Origin: a virus
Taxonomy: Duplodnaviria > Heunggongvirae > Uroviricota > Caudoviricetes
Virus record (IMG/VR): IMGVR_UViG_2526164666_000046
Direction: 5' to 3' (one strand)
Length of the DNA: 26,551 bases
A program made the position numbers and the translations under genes. The notes below the pieces were generated by a model. The model worked only from the letters and a program-made list of their open reading frames with translations. It was not told the origin of the DNA and made no database searches. This document shows, piece by piece, positions 3,815 to 26,551 of this stretch (its first letter is position 1; each line of letters opens with the position of its first letter).

Positions 3815-4261
3815 ATGAAAGTTAGAAGCATAGGATTTACAATAAATAACAATAACAAAAATATTAATACCGTTGACGTAATGAATGCTTTTATCAACGC
3901 ATCAAACAGAGAACACAGTCGCACAGACTATACTCGTAAAATTCTCATTTCGGATGTGAATGATTTCTATTATGGATTAGTTGTCACATTCAGAAACCAA
4001 AAAAAGAACTGTAAGTCGCAATTTGTTGATGGTAAATTCCAGCTTAAAATTGAAGATCTTCAAGGAAGTGACAAACTTGCTAATTTCAACTTTTTCTTAA
4101 TTAAAAAATCTAATCTTTCTGGTCTCTATATGTATCACCACGGTTCATGCAGTCTGAACACTCTCTTTTCTCATTTAGAAACAATAAGTAATGAATTTAT
4201 CAGAAATCAAAATAAAGAAGAAATAAAAAACTTGGTGATAAACCAAAACAAAAAGAAGTAA
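3815..4261 (+). CDS. Hypothetical protein (148 aa), first gene of the AT-rich Q-proximal cargo cassette
   Basis: Very AT-rich ORF with Asn/Lys-rich composition; TATAAT-like box about 80 nt upstream. Its frame and the next ORF's frame are both open across an A6 run (4225-4230), so this may be the N-terminal part of a ~270-aa protein. Confidence 0.45.
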   Translation: MKVRSIGFTINNNNKNINTVDVMNAFINASNREHSRTDYTRKILISDVNDFYYGLVVTFRNQKKNCKSQFVDGKFQLKIEDLQGSDKLANFNFFLIKKSNLSGLYMYHHGSCSLNTLFSHLETISNEFIRNQNKEEIKNLVINQNKKK

Positions 4262-4305
4262 CTGCAATAAATAAAAAATACAAAGAAAGACTGACTTTCA
4301 GCCTT

Positions 4306-4629
4306 ATGACAAATAAAAACAACATTCAGAGTGTTTTATGTCAATTCAAAGAGATTAAAAGCACAAGCTTTAAATTTAATTATATAGATTTTAAAGGTGG
4401 ACCAATGACTGCGCTTGAACAATTTGTTAACACCACCACAATAGATATGAATTTTAATTCTAGCGACAGAACAAAAGTGCAACAACTATCTCAGAATCTT
4501 TCAAATATTTATAATTCTATGAGTGGAGTTGCTAAAGCACAGGTTATTGCAGTAAACCATGCAGGAATAGAAAAAACCATTGATTTTATGAACTGCCCTG
4601 TTTTTTTGAAACATACGATTTCGATATAA
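4306..4629 (+). CDS. Hypothetical protein (107 aa), possibly the C-terminal part of the preceding gene
   Basis: Weak RBS; its frame is open upstream to 4216 and overlaps the end of the 3815..4261 frame. Same composition as its neighbours. Confidence 0.4.
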   Translation: MTNKNNIQSVLCQFKEIKSTSFKFNYIDFKGGPMTALEQFVNTTTIDMNFNSSDRTKVQQLSQNLSNIYNSMSGVAKAQVIAVNHAGIEKTIDFMNCPVFLKHTISI

Positions 4630-4725
4630 TTGCCGATAAAGTCAATGGATTGACAAACGATAATTATACAACAAACCCTGTTTTTGATATGATAAAAGAA
4701 GAAATGCTGAACGGGACGAATAAAA

Positions 4726-5274
4726 ATGCCTTTATATGAATGGCTAATAAATAAAAGATTGAGGTATCAGTACCTTACACTGCTTGCATTCTCGATCCTG
4801 GCATTGCTTGCACTTTACCTATTGTACAGAAACACACCTAAAGTAAGTGTTAACTTTTTTGAGTTTTATCATAAAAACTTACGAGGCTATCTCTTCTCCG
4901 GTTTTATTTCCGTGGGCTCATTTTTATTGAGCCTGCATACCTTTGTCATAATAAATTTACGCGATAAGGTTTTTGCAACTCAGGAATATAAGGAAATTTA
5001 TAGCATTGCCACTGGTATACCTATTGACAAAATCAATGATAGTGTACTTTATAAACCTTTAGACAATTTATCCTCATTTATTAATACATCAATATTATGT
5101 TCTATCACAACAGCAATTGCACAATTCACTATTGGACTTTCAACTAATTTATATGCATGCTTATTTTGCGTATGGCTTGCAATACTAACGGTATTTCTTT
5201 TATTACATTGCCTCATCATAATCAGACAAAATATTAAAATTTTATTAAAGCAACAGAGAAAAAAAGGGGGGTAA
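4726..5274 (+). CDS. Four-helix integral membrane protein (182 aa), last gene of the cargo cassette
   Basis: Four hydrophobic segments (YQYLTLLAFSILALLALYLLY; LFSGFISVGSFLLSLHTFVII; ILCSITTAIAQFTIGL; LYACLFCVWLAILTVFLLLHCLIII) and a basic C-tail; stop lies in the loop of the hairpin at 5266-5281. Confidence 0.55.
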   Translation: MPLYEWLINKRLRYQYLTLLAFSILALLALYLLYRNTPKVSVNFFEFYHKNLRGYLFSGFISVGSFLLSLHTFVIINLRDKVFATQEYKEIYSIATGIPIDKINDSVLYKPLDNLSSFINTSILCSITTAIAQFTIGLSTNLYACLFCVWLAILTVFLLLHCLIIIRQNIKILLKQQRKKGG

Positions 5275-18310: not shown

Positions 18311-18520
18311 GTGGGGCTGGATTGCGTACCTATATCAACCTACTGCCGCAACGCGGGAGAAACGGTTGATGCCGTTAACAAACGGATACAAAGAGGAATA
18401 TGGAAAGAAGGGGTACATGTATTAAAAGTCGACGGGGTTAAAGAGCGTTGGGTCGACTTAATAGAGGTTTCAAAATGGGCAAGAAAGAACAAGGATTATT
18501 ATCTCTGCCAAGAGGAGTAA
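18311..18520 (+). CDS. Excisionase-like protein (Xis)
   Basis: Small winged-helix-like ORF (…VDAVNKRIQRGIWKEGVHVLKVDGVKERWVDLIEVSKW…) immediately upstream of and overlapping the integrase gene; GTG start with GAGGTG RBS. Confidence 0.5.
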   Translation: MGLDCVPISTYCRNAGETVDAVNKRIQRGIWKEGVHVLKVDGVKERWVDLIEVSKWARKNKDYYLCQEE

Positions 18521-19650
18521 CTATTCGTAAGCATAAAACTGCTTCAACACTAGTTATCACTTTCACATATAAAGGGGTTCTTTGCAGGGAGCCCCTATCT
18601 CGGCTTGAGGCAAATACACGTGGTATAAAATATGCTGAGCGCCTGCTAGGGGAGATACAAAATCAGATCGCCAGCGGAACGTTTGAATATGCGAAATATT
18701 TCCCCAATTCCAAAAAACTGGAGTTATTCGGTGTAGTAAAGAAAACCAAAAATATTAAGTCCTATCTTGATGAATACCTGAAAATTTGCATAAACCGTAA
18801 TCTGTCGCCGTCAACCATTGGCGGTTACGAAAAATGTCTATCAGCACTATCAGAACTACATAAACTACATGTAACAGAATTGACGCCTGCGATACTAAAA
18901 AATTGGATAGCCAGCCGAAAAACTAAGCTGAAAACAATCAGGAATAACCTGTCATTTCTGCGCAGCGCCATTGATGAAGCTGTTACGGATGGCCTGCTGA
19001 CCATTAACCCGGTAACCCTCGTCAGCGCCAGCCGGTACCACGTGATCGACAGTAGCCCGAGCGCCGACGATTACGAGGTTGACCCGTTCACGCCAGCGGA
19101 GACCCTTGCCATTTACCAGAGCTGCAGGTACAGGGAATGGGAAAACCTGTTCCGCTTTGCTTTCAATACAGGTCTGCGGAGCTCAGAACTGTGCGCGCTG
19201 CGCTGGGCTGATCTCGACACCATCGCGAACACAGCCCACGTTCAGGCGGCCAGTGTCGTAGGGGTACTTAAAGGCACCAAGACAAAAGCCGGTACCCGTA
19301 AGGTGGAGCTGAACAGTGAGGCGCTGGCAGCCCTGCAGGCGCAGAAGCAATACACCTTTATGAAAAGTGAGTTCATATTCAGCGATCCGAAAACGGGAGA
19401 ACCCTGGACGAACGCCGACGCTATCCGTAAAAAAGCATGGGTGCCGACCCTGAAAAAAGCTGGTGTGCGCTACCGTAACCCGTACCAGACGCGCCACACA
19501 TTCGCCACCAGACACATTAGCCAGGGTGTAAACCTTTTCTGGCTTGCCGGGCAGATGGGGCATAAGGGGCCGGAAATGCTGTTCCGCAATTACGGTAAAT
19601 ACCTGGCTGAATACGATGGTAAAACGTCTATAAATGTTGTGTCAAGCTGA
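18475..19650 (+). CDS. Lambda-type tyrosine integrase with N-terminal arm-binding domain
   Basis: Catalytic-domain pattern ...LRSSELCALRWADLD..., ...RHTFATRHISQGVNLFWLAGQMGHKGPEMLFRNYGKYL (R..H..R..Y region); terminal position in the early-left operon after xis. Confidence 0.85.
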   Translation: MGKKEQGLLSLPRGVTIRKHKTASTLVITFTYKGVLCREPLSRLEANTRGIKYAERLLGEIQNQIASGTFEYAKYFPNSKKLELFGVVKKTKNIKSYLDEYLKICINRNLSPSTIGGYEKCLSALSELHKLHVTELTPAILKNWIASRKTKLKTIRNNLSFLRSAIDEAVTDGLLTINPVTLVSASRYHVIDSSPSADDYEVDPFTPAETLAIYQSCRYREWENLFRFAFNTGLRSSELCALRWADLDTIANTAHVQAASVVGVLKGTKTKAGTRKVELNSEALAALQAQKQYTFMKSEFIFSDPKTGEPWTNADAIRKKAWVPTLKKAGVRYRNPYQTRHTFATRHISQGVNLFWLAGQMGHKGPEMLFRNYGKYLAEYDGKTSINVVSS

Positions 19651-20093: not shown

Positions 20094-20117
20094 CCTCCCA
20101 TGCGGAGGTCTTTTGTT
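20094..20117 (+). terminator. Hairpin + U-rich tail between the leader ORF and the membrane-protein gene (attenuator-like)
   Basis: CCTCC-CATGC-GGAGG followed by TCTTTTGTT; 16 nt upstream of the ATG at 20133. Confidence 0.35.
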
Positions 20118-20132
20118 ATAGGAATCAATAAG

Positions 20133-21041
20133 ATGGCGAGAACATTAGTCAACGTCAGCGCTACAATTTTTGCTCTAATGATGATTGTCAGAGCACTTTT
20201 TACTTATATCTACCCTGGAAAACTACCATTTAGCATCGCCATCATTGATTGGCTGATCGTCATTGCTGGTTCTGGTGCAGCAATATCTTCTATCTTCTGC
20301 TTCATCAAAAAACGCTATCCAGACACTGCAGAATTTCTTCCTATGTTCAGCACTGTTTGTTATGTGATTATCCTTATTGGATATGCAATTTTAAGGTACA
20401 CACCGGCCTATCAAACATCGCTTTCGATCATGGTTACAGGAATGCTCGTTGGAATGGGATGGTGGATACAATGCATAACGTCCGCTGCTAACACGCGCAG
20501 GTCCCACACGCTGAACATGATCATTAACACCCGAACAAGCCCGGAGTACCAAAAACAGCTTCGGAACAGCACCAAATTCTATCGGGGCATGCGTTATGTA
20601 CCACAAGAACTATCAGAGTGGCGCTGCAACCCAGACAAAGAAGAATACAAGAATATGAAGGTCCCCGATGAGTACAGGGATGCCATCAATGGCCTTTTAT
20701 ATATTCTTAATTATTTCGAGTTTCTTGCGCAGGGTATCAAGTTCAAGGATTTGGATGACGAATTACTGAGGGAGTGCTTCTCCAGCTTCTTACGCGGGAT
20801 AGAACGTCGTGGCTTCCACATGATCTTAGAGTCTCAGAAACAGGACCCTGCAGCCTTTGAAGGAATAATCTACCTTTCAAAAAAATGGAACGGAACATCG
20901 TTTGTTGAAACCCACCGTTCCAACCCTAATACGGTTGAGCTCGGGGTTCCATATCCTTCAAACGATATGGTTGAAAAAATGGTTCAAGGTCAGCCGTTAA
21001 TAGATAGCGACGCAGGGCCGGAACTTCAAGTGGCCACTTAA
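20133..21041 (+). CDS. Membrane protein: four N-terminal TM helices + ~170-aa cytoplasmic C-terminal domain (303 aa), unknown function
   Basis: Start taken at MARTLVNVSATIF (20133), not the track's 20100; four hydrophobic segments, then a soluble domain with no recognisable motif; AT-rich island between two integrases. Confidence 0.5.
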   Translation: MARTLVNVSATIFALMMIVRALFTYIYPGKLPFSIAIIDWLIVIAGSGAAISSIFCFIKKRYPDTAEFLPMFSTVCYVIILIGYAILRYTPAYQTSLSIMVTGMLVGMGWWIQCITSAANTRRSHTLNMIINTRTSPEYQKQLRNSTKFYRGMRYVPQELSEWRCNPDKEEYKNMKVPDEYRDAINGLLYILNYFEFLAQGIKFKDLDDELLRECFSSFLRGIERRGFHMILESQKQDPAAFEGIIYLSKKWNGTSFVETHRSNPNTVELGVPYPSNDMVEKMVQGQPLIDSDAGPELQVAT

Positions 21042-21143
21042 TCTCGTTGTATGGACCAAGAGAGGACCAGAAAATGCACTCAAAATGCACTTGAGGCATT
21101 TTAAAACAGAGAATGCATTGTTATTCAATGGGTTAAGCATTGC

Positions 21144-21175
21144 TCGGGCACGGGTTCAACTCCCGCCAGCTCCAC
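21144..21175 (+). other. tmRNA (ssrA) 3'-end-like fragment, probable att core of ssrA-targeting integrative elements
   Basis: TCGGGCACGGGTTCAACTCCCGCCAGCTCCAC matches my memory of the E. coli ssrA 3' end (...TCGGACGCGGGTTCAACTCCCGCCAGCTCCACCA) with a few mismatches; followed by T5 and a hairpin + T6 at about 21210-21246; no upstream tmRNA body. Confidence 0.55.
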
Positions 21176-21339
21176 TTTTTAGTTGTTTGAAGTTCAATGA
21201 AGTCTACTAAGCCCACACAGCACAAGCTCTGCGGGCTTTTTTACGTCTATTGTCGTCCAGTGAGAATTGCTGAGAACTACGAGTTATGGCACCCTGAATG
21301 GGACCCACTAAGAAGGGTCCAAAAACCGAGGGTCCCAAA

Positions 21340-22560
21340 ATGGCAAAAATCGCTAAGAAGCTCACTGACACTGAAATCAAAAGCACCAAGCCAGCCGATA
21401 AAGAAATCAACTTGTTTGACGGTGATGGTCTGATTCTACGAATCGCTCCTTTGGCGAAAGGAGGCAAGAAAAATTGGTATTTCAGGTATGCAGTACCCGT
21501 GAGCAAGAAAAGAACCAAAATGAGCCTTGGGACATATCCTCACCTTACCCTTGCAAGAGCCAGAGCCTTACGTGATGAATATCTCTCCTTTCTGGCAAAT
21601 GGTGTTGATCCCCAAATCCATAACAACGATAAGGCGAAGGCATTAAAGAGTGCTACTGAGCACACTCTCCAAGCCGTAGCGCGGAAATGGTTAGATGAGA
21701 AGGTAAAGACATCAGGTATCTCACAAGACCATGCAGCAGACATCTGGCGCAGCTTAGAGAGAAATGTCTTTCCCGGTCTGGGTAATGTCCCTATCCGACC
21801 TAAGCTCTTAAAACAACACCTTGATCCTATTGAGCAACGAGGCGTATTGGAAACTCTACGCCGTATCATTTCACGTCTGAATGAAATCTTCCGGTGGGCA
21901 GCTACTGAAGAACTTATTGAGTTCAACCCGGCTGACAACCTTGGTCAAAGATTCAGTAAACCAAAAAAGCAAAATATGCCTGCCCTTCCCCCAAGCGAAT
22001 TGCCAAGGTTTATGGAATCTTTGACGAATGCGTCAATCCGGTTGGAAACACGTATGCTAATTGAATGGCAATTGTTGACATGGGTTCGTCCGGGTGAAGC
22101 CGTTCGCGCAAGGTGGTCTGATATTGATACAACCAACAGCATTTGGAACATTCCTGCTGATTTCATGAAAATGAAAAAGCTTCACAAAGTTCCTTTGAGT
22201 AAAGAAGCTTTGCGCATCCTTGAATTAATGAAATCAATAAGTGGGCATAGAGAATGGGTTTTCCCCAGCATAAAAGCGCCTCTTAATCATATGCATGAAC
22301 AAACAGCCAACGCAGCTATCATCCGAATGGGGTTCGGAGGCGAGCTTGTAGCTCACGGTATGCGTTCTATTGCACGAACAGCGGCAGAGGAGTCTGGTAA
22401 ATTCAGAGCTGAAGTTCTTGAGGCAGCGCTTGCCCACTCGAAAAAAGATGAAATTATCGCAGCATACAATCGTGCAGAATATCTGATAGAGCGACAGAGT
22501 TTGATGCAATGGTGGAGTGATTACGTTCAAGCTCAAAGATCAAATGCTCTGGTAGCCTAA
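21340..22560 (+). CDS. P4-type tyrosine integrase (IntA/CP4-57-like)
   Basis: MAKIAKKLTDTEIKSTKPADKEINLFDGDGL... closely parallels the remembered IntA N-terminus; C-terminal HGMRSIARTAA...ALAHSKKDEIIAAYNRAEYL catalytic region; RBS GAGGG 8 nt upstream of the ATG at 21340. Confidence 0.85.
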   Translation: MAKIAKKLTDTEIKSTKPADKEINLFDGDGLILRIAPLAKGGKKNWYFRYAVPVSKKRTKMSLGTYPHLTLARARALRDEYLSFLANGVDPQIHNNDKAKALKSATEHTLQAVARKWLDEKVKTSGISQDHAADIWRSLERNVFPGLGNVPIRPKLLKQHLDPIEQRGVLETLRRIISRLNEIFRWAATEELIEFNPADNLGQRFSKPKKQNMPALPPSELPRFMESLTNASIRLETRMLIEWQLLTWVRPGEAVRARWSDIDTTNSIWNIPADFMKMKKLHKVPLSKEALRILELMKSISGHREWVFPSIKAPLNHMHEQTANAAIIRMGFGGELVAHGMRSIARTAAEESGKFRAEVLEAALAHSKKDEIIAAYNRAEYLIERQSLMQWWSDYVQAQRSNALVA

Positions 22561-23233
22561 GTATCAGAATAGCTAATATAATCCTGAAGGTAAAGAAAAT
22601 GGAAACCCTATTCAAAGTTTTTGAAAAATTTAGTTCCAGACCACTTTTTTTATTTTTTTCGGACTCTCACTTTGTGAATTTTTTCAGAAACAATCTGTTC
22701 TGATGAATCCATCAGCAGATAACATCGCGAAATTATTCGCAGCCATGATATTAGTTGTTTTTTTACTTGGGGATTTGAATGGCTAATCTTCAAGTTCAAT
22801 GTAAACCTTGAACCTCATGATCAAGGCGATATTGGACCAACAATTGGAACGGCTACTTTAGCTGTATACTTAGTTTATGCCTTTCACTTTCTCAGTGAAA
22901 ATCCTGAAGCATTAAATTTAAAGTTATTAACTAACTCTGGCTTTATATACAGCACAACTCTATTATTATTCTCATTAGAATGCATGAAGCTTAGAAGACT
23001 TAAACAAAAATAAACAACATCATTGTGATGATAAATATAAAATAGGCATGGCGAAAAAAAATCACCACGCCTAAAATATAATAATTATGGTAGCATCATT
23101 GATACATAATCCACACCAATCCTTGAGCTATACTGAGACGCTATAGCCTGATATCTTTCTGCATAACCAGTTCTCAGTTGAGATTTAAGTTTGAGTCGGA
23201 CAGGAACATTTTGCACGTTGCCATCCATATTAC

Positions 23234-24832
23234 TTAAAAACACGGCAGAAATAATATTTTTTCTTCGCCATCAACTGTTGTTCCATGATTCAACACCACC
23301 ATATAATCAACAACAGGAAGCGTTTTATCCCCTTCGAAAATAGAGAGATATTTTCTTTGATTTTTATGCATTACATATATATATTTCGAATGTTCAGCAA
23401 ATGGCAATGCTTTACTCTGACTGGCGTTAAAAAGCTCCAGAACTTTAATGAGCCTGTGCGGACTTAATCTTACATGGTGAGGGTCGTTACCCTGAGTAGG
23501 AACCAAATCACATGCCGCAGATACACATAAATACCATTTGTTCGACTCTGTATCAAAGAAAATAGTGCCAGTAGAAATATGACCATCTTCAAAATTCTTT
23601 GAAGACAAATTCATATTTAAAGCATGATACATTTCGTGATAAGTATCATTATTTGATGGCAGATCCATTTTTGAAGAGCAATATTGGAGCAATGCAGCAA
23701 CTCCGCTGTTAGCGTATTCATTTGAATAGCTATCAAAAACACTTTTGATAAATTCATCCAGCGTATTATTATTTTTAAGTCTTTGATAAAGCTCTTCTGA
23801 TAAATTACCAAATACAAAGTCAATATTTCTACATCTAATATCAGGCGAGTCTGATTTTAATATCTCATTTAACCACGCAGCTTGACCGTAATGATCGTTA
23901 GCCAAATGATTTACAAAAGATAAAGCCTCAGCTTCGATTGCATTCTGAATTTCAGATTTTATTAACTGATAATAAGATGGTTTCCATTCAATGAGAGAAT
24001 CATTGAGAGTTTGCCAAATCCTATCTCCATCGTTTTCATGATCATCTTGAACCTTATGAAATAGGGAGACAAAGATATTACCACATTGAATCCATTTTAC
24101 TCCGCTTTCATCACCCCGAATGACATTGCCAGATGTGTTGCTAGAAATAATTGCATTTCTAGACACAGCATATTCTGCAATCATTTTTGCAATGAAGTTT
24201 TTATCCTTTTGATCCTCCAACACAGCATCATCATGTATTAATCTTTTAATTCTTCTACAAGGCTTACTGTCTTTAATATAGGCTATTATTTCATCTCTTG
24301 TGAGAGCTTTATTACCATTATCATTTAAGTTCGGTAATACAACGTCTTCCCAATAACTTTGGACATCTTCATTATCGTAGTCAATGATCAAGCTGTTGAT
24401 ATCCAGAGCACCTTTGAGAGTCGATGATATCTGCATCCAAACCGTTTCTAAATTCTCTCTAGTATATATTACAATCATATTTAAATGATCGGAGTCTTTC
24501 AAATCTTGTAATAGTTTAAGTGTTTTATCAGGTGCATTATTATCAAGATGATAATCTACAATAATAAGATCTGATTTTCTAATCCGATCCACATCGAAAT
24601 TAACAGAACCATTGTCAACATCACAAATCATATTTTTAGATTGAAAAAAGCTCTCAAGAGTAGCGGCTCGTTTAGATGAGTCAATTTTGTTGTAGTCTAA
24701 ATCAACTTCGTTATTCAACGCCCTGATTGATTCAGAATACGTCAGAAAATCGTCATCAATCATGACAACGGAACGAATTGCATTTTCGCAGAAAGTTTTC
24801 TGGACAAGAGAATTATAATTTGCCACTGTCAT
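23234..24832 (-). CDS. Receiver (REC)-domain protein fused to a ~400-aa uncharacterised C-terminal domain (532 aa); candidate effector of a two-component-type module
   Basis: N-terminal REC-like pattern: SVVMIDDD (acidic pocket), DLIIVDYHL (phospho-acceptor Asp position), NMIVIYT (conserved Thr position). ATG at 24832 with GGAG 7 nt upstream, 1 nt after the kinase stop. Very AT-rich. C-terminal domain unrecognised. Confidence 0.6.
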   Translation of the reverse strand: MTVANYNSLVQKTFCENAIRSVVMIDDDFLTYSESIRALNNEVDLDYNKIDSSKRAATLESFFQSKNMICDVDNGSVNFDVDRIRKSDLIIVDYHLDNNAPDKTLKLLQDLKDSDHLNMIVIYTRENLETVWMQISSTLKGALDINSLIIDYDNEDVQSYWEDVVLPNLNDNGNKALTRDEIIAYIKDSKPCRRIKRLIHDDAVLEDQKDKNFIAKMIAEYAVSRNAIISSNTSGNVIRGDESGVKWIQCGNIFVSLFHKVQDDHENDGDRIWQTLNDSLIEWKPSYYQLIKSEIQNAIEAEALSFVNHLANDHYGQAAWLNEILKSDSPDIRCRNIDFVFGNLSEELYQRLKNNNTLDEFIKSVFDSYSNEYANSGVAALLQYCSSKMDLPSNNDTYHEMYHALNMNLSSKNFEDGHISTGTIFFDTESNKWYLCVSAACDLVPTQGNDPHHVRLSPHRLIKVLELFNASQSKALPFAEHSKYIYVMHKNQRKYLSIFEGDKTLPVVDYMVVLNHGTTVDGEEKILFLPCF

Positions 24833-24833
24833 A

Positions 24834-26551
24834 TTAGAACTCCACTCCATTGAACTGGATCACAAAATTAGCGCCATCTTTTATTAAATAGTTATCGCCT
24901 TCATCAGGTTCTGAATACCATATTTTATGATGTGCAACAGCAAGGTTTTCTCGACATAGATACAGACCTACCCCATGTCCATTTGCTCTTTTGCTATAAA
25001 ATAGTTCAAATAGTCGCGGGATATCATCGGTATCAATTGCCGGACCAGAATTTGCTATGATAACCAAAGAATTCACAAAACCAATCTTTATGAGCCTATT
25101 ATTTGACAGACTGACCCAATACATTGCATTGTTGATAATATTAGTAAAAACAGGATAGATCCTTAATGGTATATCTGTTATTGCGATTTGCTTAAACTCT
25201 TCACTAAATTCAATAGTTATTCGTTGCCGTTCGAAACGCTCCCCAAAGAACTTCAGGACATAATCCATGATATTTTTTCCAGTTATTCTCTGCCTGGATT
25301 GATAACCTGATATTTTCAAAGGTGATAAGAAACGTATTTGTTGAGTAAGCGATCTGTGAGCATTTAACGCCAATGAAAAACCAGGGTGTTCTTTTACAGA
25401 AGTAGGAAGAGAGTTTAGTCCTCTGGTTACCATAGAATCCATTTCTTCAAGTTCATGAGATATTATCTCAACACTAATACCTAACTGTGCAAGCGCGTTT
25501 AAACTTTTAGCTTTTTCTTCAAAATATGAGCGTTCTTCTTCAGATAATGAGAATGCTGAATCTAAGTTTATACCTTCAAATAATCTATCGAGACCTTTTA
25601 TTATTGATTGATATTTGAAAGTTAGGGTATCAACTGACTCAACATATAAACTATCGAGCAAATTAAACACATTTTCAATTTGTGAATCATTATCTATTGA
25701 ATCAACAACTGATATAGTTTTAGCATAATAATCACTTCGATCAACCTTTATTTCATCGGCCCATTTTTTTAAAAGAGAATGTATCTTCTCCTCTATCGTG
25801 TTATTAAACTTAGTTAGTTTAGAATTAATAATACCTTGATTTTTTCAAGGTGATTTTTCGCTGACAATGAAGGCTCAAGTTTATTTAATTCAGAATCAAG
25901 TTTATTAATTGCTAACTTCATTTGTAGAATATACGCAGAGAACTCATTAAATTTATCTCTGTAGTCTCTATATTTCTCTTCATACATTCCAAGTTTTGGA
26001 GGTTTGATAGGCGTTTTAATTTCACTGCGCAACGCATCTAAGTTTGTAAGATCACTGTCTATAATTTTAAGATAGTTTAAATCTAACGAACCATCAGTTT
26101 TATCAAGCTTAGTTTTCAGCCTTTTAACAGCCTCCAAGGAAGCATCAAGAACTGGTGTCTGATTCTTCAAAGCTTCTGAAAAACTTTTTTGTGTTGATTT
26201 TCGAGCTTGTTGTTGAGCAGATTTTCTTAACTCTTTTTCACGCTTAACTTGTTCTAAAAGCTCTTTACGGTCATCAGAACGTGAACCAAAAAATCTATCA
26301 GCAAGTTCAGTTAACAAATTAGATATAATAGTTTTCAGTTCTCTTGCAGCCTGGTTTCTTATGAATCCCTCTCTCCCCGACTTATCTTTCAGCTCTTTAT
26401 TACTGGATTGAGTAATTCCAATATAACCAAAAATCCTTCTATTAGACCAATAATATCGCCCTGCATTCCATGAACGTCTTTCTTCTATCTGGAAGAAATC
26501 ATTATCTACTCGACCATAAGGTAATACTCTCAAGCTATCCCTAAAAATCAT
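24834..26551 (-). CDS. Sensor histidine kinase (HisKA H-box + HATPase_c), 5'-partial at the window edge, reading frame interrupted at an A6 run
   Basis: Downstream part (frame open 25844..24834, no start codon) carries H-box IISHELEEM, N-box FTNIINNAMYW, G1 IANSGPAIDTDD, G2 GHGVGLYL. Upstream part (26551..25814, continues beyond window) ends 30 nt after the frame switch. One extra A in the minus-strand A6 run (plus 25840-25845) would fuse both into one ORF of at least 580 aa. Confidence 0.6.

Follow-up and report, generated by a model that had tools for sequence, protein, structure and literature searches.

Does a histidine kinase gene that sits beside a receiver gene on a mobile island form a defense module of its own, or is it part of something larger? 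The question is raised by the right-hand end of IMG/VR virus record IMGVR_UViG_2526164666_000046 (Caudoviricetes), a stretch of 26,551 nucleotides that we analyzed whole and refer to as the window. Two genes lie there on the minus strand with 1 nt between them, a receiver-effector gene (23085-24832) and a kinase gene (24834-26551). An earlier note, made from the letters alone, had described the pair as AT-rich and adjacent to a P4-type integrase gene, and had read it as an undescribed, repairable two-gene defense module, perhaps a variant of Detocs. The description was accurate: the GC content is 0.32-0.35 across the pair versus about 0.5 over most of the window, and the integrase carries the expected Pfam domains. 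The interpretation is not supported. We consider it highly likely that the window locus is a non-functional remnant, consisting of a sensor-less kinase stub and a receiver-effector gene, and very unlikely that the Escherichia coli copy is a working new defense system.

A known family, truncated in E. coli

The domains of the two proteins identify the pair. Profile searches, which the earlier note had proposed, placed Response_reg_2 (PF19192, E 3e-31) on the receiver (REC) domain at 24053-24778, with the codon for the phospho-acceptor Asp93 at 24554-24556. HEF_HK (PF19191, 27.1 bits against a cut-off of 24.1) marks the DHp or H-box domain of the kinase at 25311-25487, where the phospho-histidine codon occupies 25455-25457 (His782 in full-length numbering), and HATPase_c (PF02518, E 7.8e-12) marks the catalytic ATP-binding domain at 24894-25169, with its N, G1-like, F and G2 boxes. 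All of these are on the minus strand. NCBIfam gave only sub-threshold matches of the kinase core to AtoS/PhoR-type kinases, and PADLOC gave no defense-system model for the pair. 

The pair cannot be called undescribed, since PF19192 and PF19191 were defined by Bellieny-Rabelo, Pretorius & Moleleki (2021, Genome Biol Evol) as a 'TCS-like' pair (PMC8011034). Those authors found the two genes linked in 91.6% of cases over 644 regions. The kinases are soluble, and the main architecture, HATPase_c_3 followed by HEF_HK and HATPase_c, was present in 174 of 222; HATPase_c_3 occurs on the kinase in 83% of members and is missing from 34 of the 222 HEF_HK proteins, about 15%. They also reported descent from paraMORC ATPases, included one E. 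coli protein among their structural examples, found C5 DNA methylases, Vsr and type II restriction-modification (R-M) genes strongly enriched nearby, and proposed a regulatory link to R-M systems (PMC8011034). Judged by its sequence, the pair in the window is a degraded member of this Response_reg_2/HEF_HK family and is thus known at the family level. It shares both diagnostic domains, the adjacency, the soluble kinase and the island location, and its intact relatives have the predominant architecture together with a C5 methylase. The window copy differs in that an IS3 deletion has left it without the HATPase_c_3 half and the methylase, and in that it carries frameshifts.

The H, N, G1 and G2 boxes that had been recognized in the kinase are real (the G1 box is G1-like). 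The protein is a fragment, annotated as a 572-aa 'ATP-binding protein' (WP_000577251), and covers residues 417-988 of a protein that is 988 aa long in full. The stub is annotated to start at the internal Met417, which coincides with the final base of the window, and in related genomes the open reading frame (ORF) runs about 123 nt further (41 codons in frame), up to the end of an IS3 element. A protein search with the 572-aa stub retrieved 988-aa proteins of Klebsiella, Serratia and Salmonella that are 99% identical over the shared part. These relatives have HATPase_c_3 at residues 28-137 with an invariant GHKL motif III (G104-K-G-I-G109). The parent kinase is therefore a soluble 988-aa fusion of a MORC-like GHKL ATPase (HATPase_c_3, a transducer region and a coiled coil) to the HEF_HK DHp and HATPase_c domains. 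Across 38 full-length homologues, H782-E783, N887/N890/N891, G919, F931/F934 and G941-x-G943-V-G945-L are invariant, and the segment G380-N482, inside which the stub starts, is highly conserved with invariant residues of its own. Kinase annotations of 572 aa, 82-84% identical, also exist in Pectobacterium, Salmonella, Klebsiella, Yersinia ruckeri, Morganella and Serratia (P0163, P0169-P0175, P0179-P0182). These could represent truncations that arose independently, frameshifted genes annotated from that internal Met, or a short form that really exists.

It had been supposed that the 5' end of the kinase gene merely lay outside the window, so that extending the sequence and repairing the frame would recover the operon. 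Instead, in all E. coli genomes with the locus, IS3 truncates the gene at codon 376. Homology between E. coli and the intact element described below begins in that codon, at nt 1127, the IS3 terminal repeat lies directly upstream, and IS3 stands in place of the methylase gene and kinase codons 1-375, which encode the GHKL ATPase sensor. A megablast search of 5,426 complete E. coli genomes with the methylase/kinase 5' segment of the intact element gave no match, and no C5 methylase gene is present in the window. All 560 complete E. coli genomes that carry the pair span the identical IS3 junction, which points to a single deletion in their common ancestor; in this IS3-associated event the E. coli lineage lost kinase codons 1-375, the methylase and the remainder of the element. 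Neither frameshift repair nor a longer window could restore what was replaced in that ancestor. The conservation of the pair (at least 99% in the 560 genomes) is likewise explained by one recent shared ancestor, and some carriers have additional IS1 or IS600 insertions. Outside complete genomes, contig DAIPZW010000118.1 (5.6 kb, labeled as a Bacteroidales metagenome-assembled genome) matches the E. coli remnant at 99-100% identity, shares its truncation point (kinase residues from 376) and is probably an E. coli contig that was mis-binned.

Substitutions polarized with six intact copies indicate that constraint was relaxed after the truncation. On the E. coli branch, the kinase stub has accumulated 7 nonsynonymous and 3 synonymous changes and the receiver gene 2 and 3, respectively; the corresponding polymorphism among the intact copies is 0:4 and 2:15. 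Pooled, the nonsynonymous to synonymous counts are 9:6 on the E. coli branch versus 2:19 in the intact copies (Fisher p = 0.0024).

The window adds frameshifts to this truncation. A single-T deletion in a T7 run at 25839 splits the kinase ORF in two, and another, at 23256 and likewise in a T7 run, leaves only the first 525 of the 582 receiver residues in frame, so that the invariant residues Q552, R554, Y557, R571, G573 and D575 are lost. The 538-aa reading of the second gene in the earlier note does not hold for this reason; it has 6 additional codons upstream and leaves the frame of the 582-aa protein (WP_000214985 when intact) after residue 525. That both frameshifts are real in the strain, and its copy a double pseudogene besides being truncated by IS3, is unlikely. 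The deletions do stand in the sequence as given, and decay is to be expected of a remnant. However, over a 4-kb region the only differences from E. coli O26:H11 11368 are four single-T losses in runs that are T7-T8 in the reference, two of which (22644 and 22757) break the neighboring 138-aa gene. Relative to the nearest genome, O103 RM8385, nine single-base deletions in A/T runs are scattered from one end of the window to the other (37, 3036, 4224, 4600, 12777, 22644, 22757, 23256 and 25839); five of them lie outside the region just mentioned, prophage genes are among those affected, and several genes are frameshifted. None of the 25 best-matching E. coli genomes is 100% identical to the window. 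Because of these losses across the window and the lack of an identical genome, the frameshifts are probably homopolymer sequencing errors. The pattern is typical of homopolymer under-calling and calls for caution with any 'pseudogene' in the window.

Several points weigh against treating the locus as a dead remnant. Both ORFs are intact and carry no pseudogene flags in both E. coli reference genomes that we examined. The selection test is small, with 36 substitutions in all. The remnant might also retain a residual role, for example as a constitutive, sensor-less kinase that holds the effector in one state. Searches of the literature by accession, domain name and keyword found no experimental study of any family member.

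The intact element and its three-gene unit

Copies 99% identical to the E. coli genes are found in Serratia, Klebsiella and Salmonella as part of a three-gene operon encoding a C5 methylase, the 988-aa paraMORC-kinase and the 582-aa receiver-effector. The order at the intact locus is recombinases and a relaxase, the 402-aa methyltransferase (MTase), the kinase, the receiver-effector, a 138-aa gene and the same P4-type integrase that is present in the window; beyond the integrase lie smpB (Serratia-type locus) or other chromosomal genes (Salmonella). The methylase gene overlaps the kinase start by 20 nt. Its product matches PADLOC MTase_II (E 7e-80) and also DruM/DrmMII, and, apart from a weak match of the receiver protein given below, these were the only matches when PADLOC was run on both proteins, the full-length kinase and the island neighbors; no known defense system was found among them. 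The whole looks like an integrative mobilizable element with the three-gene operon as cargo. On the Serratia-type contig (L002, 1-8721), it also has two to three more tyrosine recombinases in a row, a family-less protein of 543-626 aa, a MOB relaxase and several small unknown genes.

This gene content extends beyond these three genera. We collected 46 loci with relatives of the receiver protein at 21-99% identity from Gamma-, Alpha- and Betaproteobacteria, Planctomycetota, Myxococcota, Verrucomicrobiota and other groups. In each of the 40 loci for which both receiver flanks were available, tblastn found a C5 MTase, a full-length kinase and the receiver protein side by side; in 25 of them the methylase lies upstream, in the same orientation, and in the other 15 it follows shortly downstream. 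No complete locus had an intact kinase and receiver but no methylase. Clustering of the flanking ORFs revealed no other gene family in more than 5 loci, save two antisense shadow-ORF clusters inside the kinase gene; the conserved system is therefore three genes without a separate nuclease, rather than the two genes that had been taken for a module. Neither of the two proteins, nor any conserved neighbor in the intact loci, showed a nuclease fold. The published account frames the family as an R-M-adjacent regulator (PMC8011034), whereas the unit conserved here is exactly these three genes.

The receiver protein is presumed to be the effector of the unit through its C-terminal region (23088-24052, minus strand). 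Its REC domain contains a helical insertion (helices at 128-226, between beta4 and beta5), and D26, D27, D93, T124 and K260 never vary and occupy the correct positions in the predicted structure. The output region follows as a helical bundle (aa ~268-410) and a beta-rich domain (aa ~411-582), with invariant H403, N406, G422, C436, C441, D442, P445, R460, Q552, R554, Y557, R571, G573 and D575. A receiver fused to a domain of no recognizable family had been described correctly; the domain comprises about 320 aa.

Pfam, NCBIfam and PADLOC found no DNA-binding or other domain in these C-terminal ~320 aa, which bears out the absence of a DNA-binding output (OmpR, NarL, LytTR and NtrC types are all missing from the receiver protein) and of a PNP-type effector motif. 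With the Pfam threshold relaxed to E <= 1, 18 C-terminal regions gave only scattered single-member noise and no PemK or CcdB. Profiles of the whole receiver protein and of the C-terminal region found no match in a sequence search of the PDB, and although structure prediction, one of the steps that the earlier note had suggested, modeled the helical bundle and the beta-rich domain, Foldseek found nothing significant in the PDB for the C-terminal model. A profile search with the C-terminal region against 1.84 billion representatives found 645 proteins. Nearly all of the 150 listed were the same receiver fusion of ~600 aa, so those 150 offered no domain-shuffling clue to output function. The cluster that is 100% identical to the receiver protein (P0001) has 1966 member sequences, and a cluster of a shortened, 453-aa receiver protein has 1605.

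From these parts, a pathway for the intact operon can be proposed. Host DNA would be marked by the methylase, and unmethylated or foreign DNA would be sensed by the MORC-like ATPase module. Sensing would drive autophosphorylation of His782, and the phosphoryl group would move to Asp93 of the receiver. The C-terminal domain would thereby be freed to act as a toxic or restricting effector, possibly with a MazF/CcdB-like toxin fold. His-Asp phosphotransfer is the established chemistry of two-component systems. We infer the sensing and effector steps from this precedent, from the obligatory MTase linkage, from the absence of another conserved nuclease and from the presence of MORC/paraMORC GHKL ATPases in R-M operons (PMC2292703). 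As a whole, the parent may, tentatively, be viewed as a methylation-gated, phosphorelay-controlled system of a restriction-like or abortive-infection kind, and a defense role for it is plausible. The methylase would be the antidote: it is always present, and none of the complete loci retains kinase and receiver in its absence. E. coli, the one case that lacks the methylase, lost the sensor ATPase at the same time, which fits the proposed mechanism. The MORC part of the proposal is of interest in that MORCs of eukaryotes likewise read DNA methylation.

A regulatory role for the parent is unlikely, though it deserves to be set beside the proposed pathway. Here the parent would be a two-component circuit with a novel output domain that binds DNA or protein and governs expression of the methylase, an epigenetic switch or the transfer of the mobile element. 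In its favor, no catalytic fold could be identified in the output domain, a relaxase and recombinases accompany the operon on the intact element, and R-M regulation is what the original authors suggested (PMC8011034). The gene neighborhoods argue otherwise. The methylase and the kinase are the sole conserved partners (40/40), and because no R-M nuclease or other target gene is conserved across the 40 loci, there is nothing obvious to regulate. In addition, many of the invariant residues of the output domain are polar (H403, N406, C436, C441, D442, R460, Q552, R554, Y557, R571 and D575) and look more like an active site than a DNA-reading surface, and the lack of any complete locus with an intact kinase and receiver but no methylase fits a methylase that acts as the antidote.

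The restriction-like reading of the parent operon also has to be placed among known systems. As in type II R-M, a Type-II-like C5 MTase is encoded in the parent beside genes that seem, from their pattern of loss, to supply a toxic counterpart. The parent is not a recognizable type II system, because no endonuclease is present (and, in the window, no methylase); the putative 'R' function would be shared between a sensor kinase that depends on ATP and an effector activated by phosphorylation. With the paraMORC/MORC GHKL ATPases of Iyer, Abhiman & Aravind (2008), the parent kinase shares the N-terminal GHKL domain, motif III, a cytosine methylase neighbor and residence on mobile islands (PMC2292703). 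It differs in that the GHKL domain, which is deleted in the window, is fused to a full histidine-kinase core and paired with a receiver protein. The paraMORCs described so far have helicases as partners, or else nucleases of the RE-fold, HNH or TIR type, and we rejected paraMORC1-5 as the identity of the kinase because no kinase/receiver fusion is described among them (PMC2292703). With the MazF/Kid/CcdB toxins, sequence identity is 4-11%, MazF catalytic residues cannot be mapped, there is no significant Foldseek match, and an hhalign comparison of the C-terminal profile with a small alignment of MazF, Kid and CcdB gave a probability of 0.1%; the output domain also follows a helical bundle and is fused to a receiver rather than paired with an antitoxin.

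The island and prophage around the pair

The integrase end of the island is marked by a 48-nt 3' fragment of ssrA, the gene for transfer-messenger RNA (tmRNA), at 21130-21177 on the plus strand, which we interpret as an attachment-site remnant. The 24-mer GGGTTCAACTCCCGCCAGCTCCAC of ssrA occurs exactly at 21152-21175, where the chance expectation is 0 matches, and Rfam reports a partial tmRNA match at the fragment; an ARAGORN scan of the window found no complete tRNA or tmRNA gene. ssrA is a typical attachment site for this family of P4-type integrases. A partial match to IsrM, a Salmonella island small RNA (RF02763), overlaps the fragment (21130-21242, plus strand; 51.5 bits, E 3.8e-12, far under the gathering score).

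The P4-type tyrosine integrase gene itself lies at 21298-22560 on the plus strand (Pfam Arm-DNA-bind_3 2.2e-22, Phage_int_M 1.4e-18, Phage_integrase 1.8e-19). It is followed at 22599-23013, on the same strand, by the 138-aa hypothetical gene (WP_000448925 in the O26 and O103 genomes), which occupies the same place in the intact element and has no Pfam or PADLOC match. The pair is borne on an integrase-linked, AT-rich island and, in keeping with the earlier note, is not a housekeeping two-component system.

Further left of the integrase is a lambdoid prophage, and prophage and island appear to occupy the ssrA site one after the other. A solitary DUF4760 gene (20100-21041, plus strand; E 8e-16), whose product has one weak PADLOC match (DrmMII, E 0.003), stands between the integrase gene of the prophage (18448-19650) and the attachment site of the island. 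Within the prophage, where the GC content is about 0.52, two adjoining ORFs at 3815-5274 (plus strand) have a GC content of 0.31-0.34 and encode 308 aa and 182 aa in O103 RM8385. They sit between a TerB-like pseudogene and antiterminator Q, and neither has a Pfam or PADLOC match. The two look like an AT-rich 'moron', possibly accessory or defense cargo; the first is broken in the window by the homopolymer deletion at 4224.

Other readings of the pair and implications

That the E. coli pair is a self-sufficient two-gene module for defense or signaling, in which the 572-aa kinase senses infection by a long N-terminal region and phosphorylates the receiver-effector, is improbable. The annotation and the sequences lend it something: both ORFs are annotated as intact in two E. 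coli reference genomes, kinase core and receiver have lost none of their catalytic residues, kinases annotated at 572 aa occur in other genera as well, and HATPase_c_3 is naturally missing from about 15% of HEF_HK proteins (PMC8011034). The conservation across 560 complete genomes might seem to favor it as well, but it is accounted for by recent shared ancestry. The 572-aa protein begins at an internal Met of the 988-aa one, upstream of which the frame stays open for 41 codons until the end of IS3, and the stub starts amid a segment with invariant residues (G380-N482). The methylase, found in 40 of the 40 complete loci, is missing, and the nonsynonymous excess on the E. coli branch and the extra IS damage in some carriers also speak against a working pair.

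Detocs, in the account of Rousset et al. from 2023, reportedly consists of the DtcA kinase, the DtcB buffer receiver and a DtcC receiver-PNP effector, and is said to have neither a MORC-like GHKL N-terminus nor a C5 methylase partner. A variant of it is scarcely credible here, because the likeness is one of concept only (a kinase and a receiver fused to a non-DNA-binding effector, a two-component phosphorelay to a non-transcriptional effector, and a mobile, defense-island context), whereas no PADLOC system model matches either protein at E <= 0.01, bar a weak match of the receiver protein to a transmembrane-protein model (E 0.006), a stand-alone, DtcB-like receiver gene is absent from both the window and the intact loci, the output domain shows no PNP or other known Detocs effector domain, and the kinase has a MORC-like GHKL N-terminus in its full-length form and an obligatory C5 methylase partner.

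The pair has the H-box His, the N and G boxes and the receiver Asp/Thr/Lys quintet of a classical transcriptional two-component system but is not one, because it has no DNA-binding output. Two further candidates were set aside. A keyword check of the preprint on MADS (methylation-associated defense system) revealed no receiver, HATPase or MORC component, and the 'histidine kinase' mentioned there is only a hotspot boundary gene. A paper on WASA in Vibrio cholerae that mentions paraMORC deals with WonAB, GrwAB and Shedu and is unrelated.

For E. coli, then, the locus is very probably a decayed leftover of a mobile element in one lineage group (Shiga toxin-producing E. coli O26, O103 and others). 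It is of little import for the window, and the remnant is unsuitable for cloning as a two-gene system. As a by-product, the core of the family has been narrowed to three genes, and intact templates that are 99% identical are available in Serratia, Klebsiella and Salmonella. It is not likely, yet worth stating, that the parent operon represents an experimentally uncharacterized class of immune system with a new or MazF/CcdB-like effector fold, of which the E. coli remnant might keep some residual activity. If it is a defense system, the parent operon would join R-M-style self-marking, MORC-type DNA sensing and a two-component phosphorelay in one pathway.

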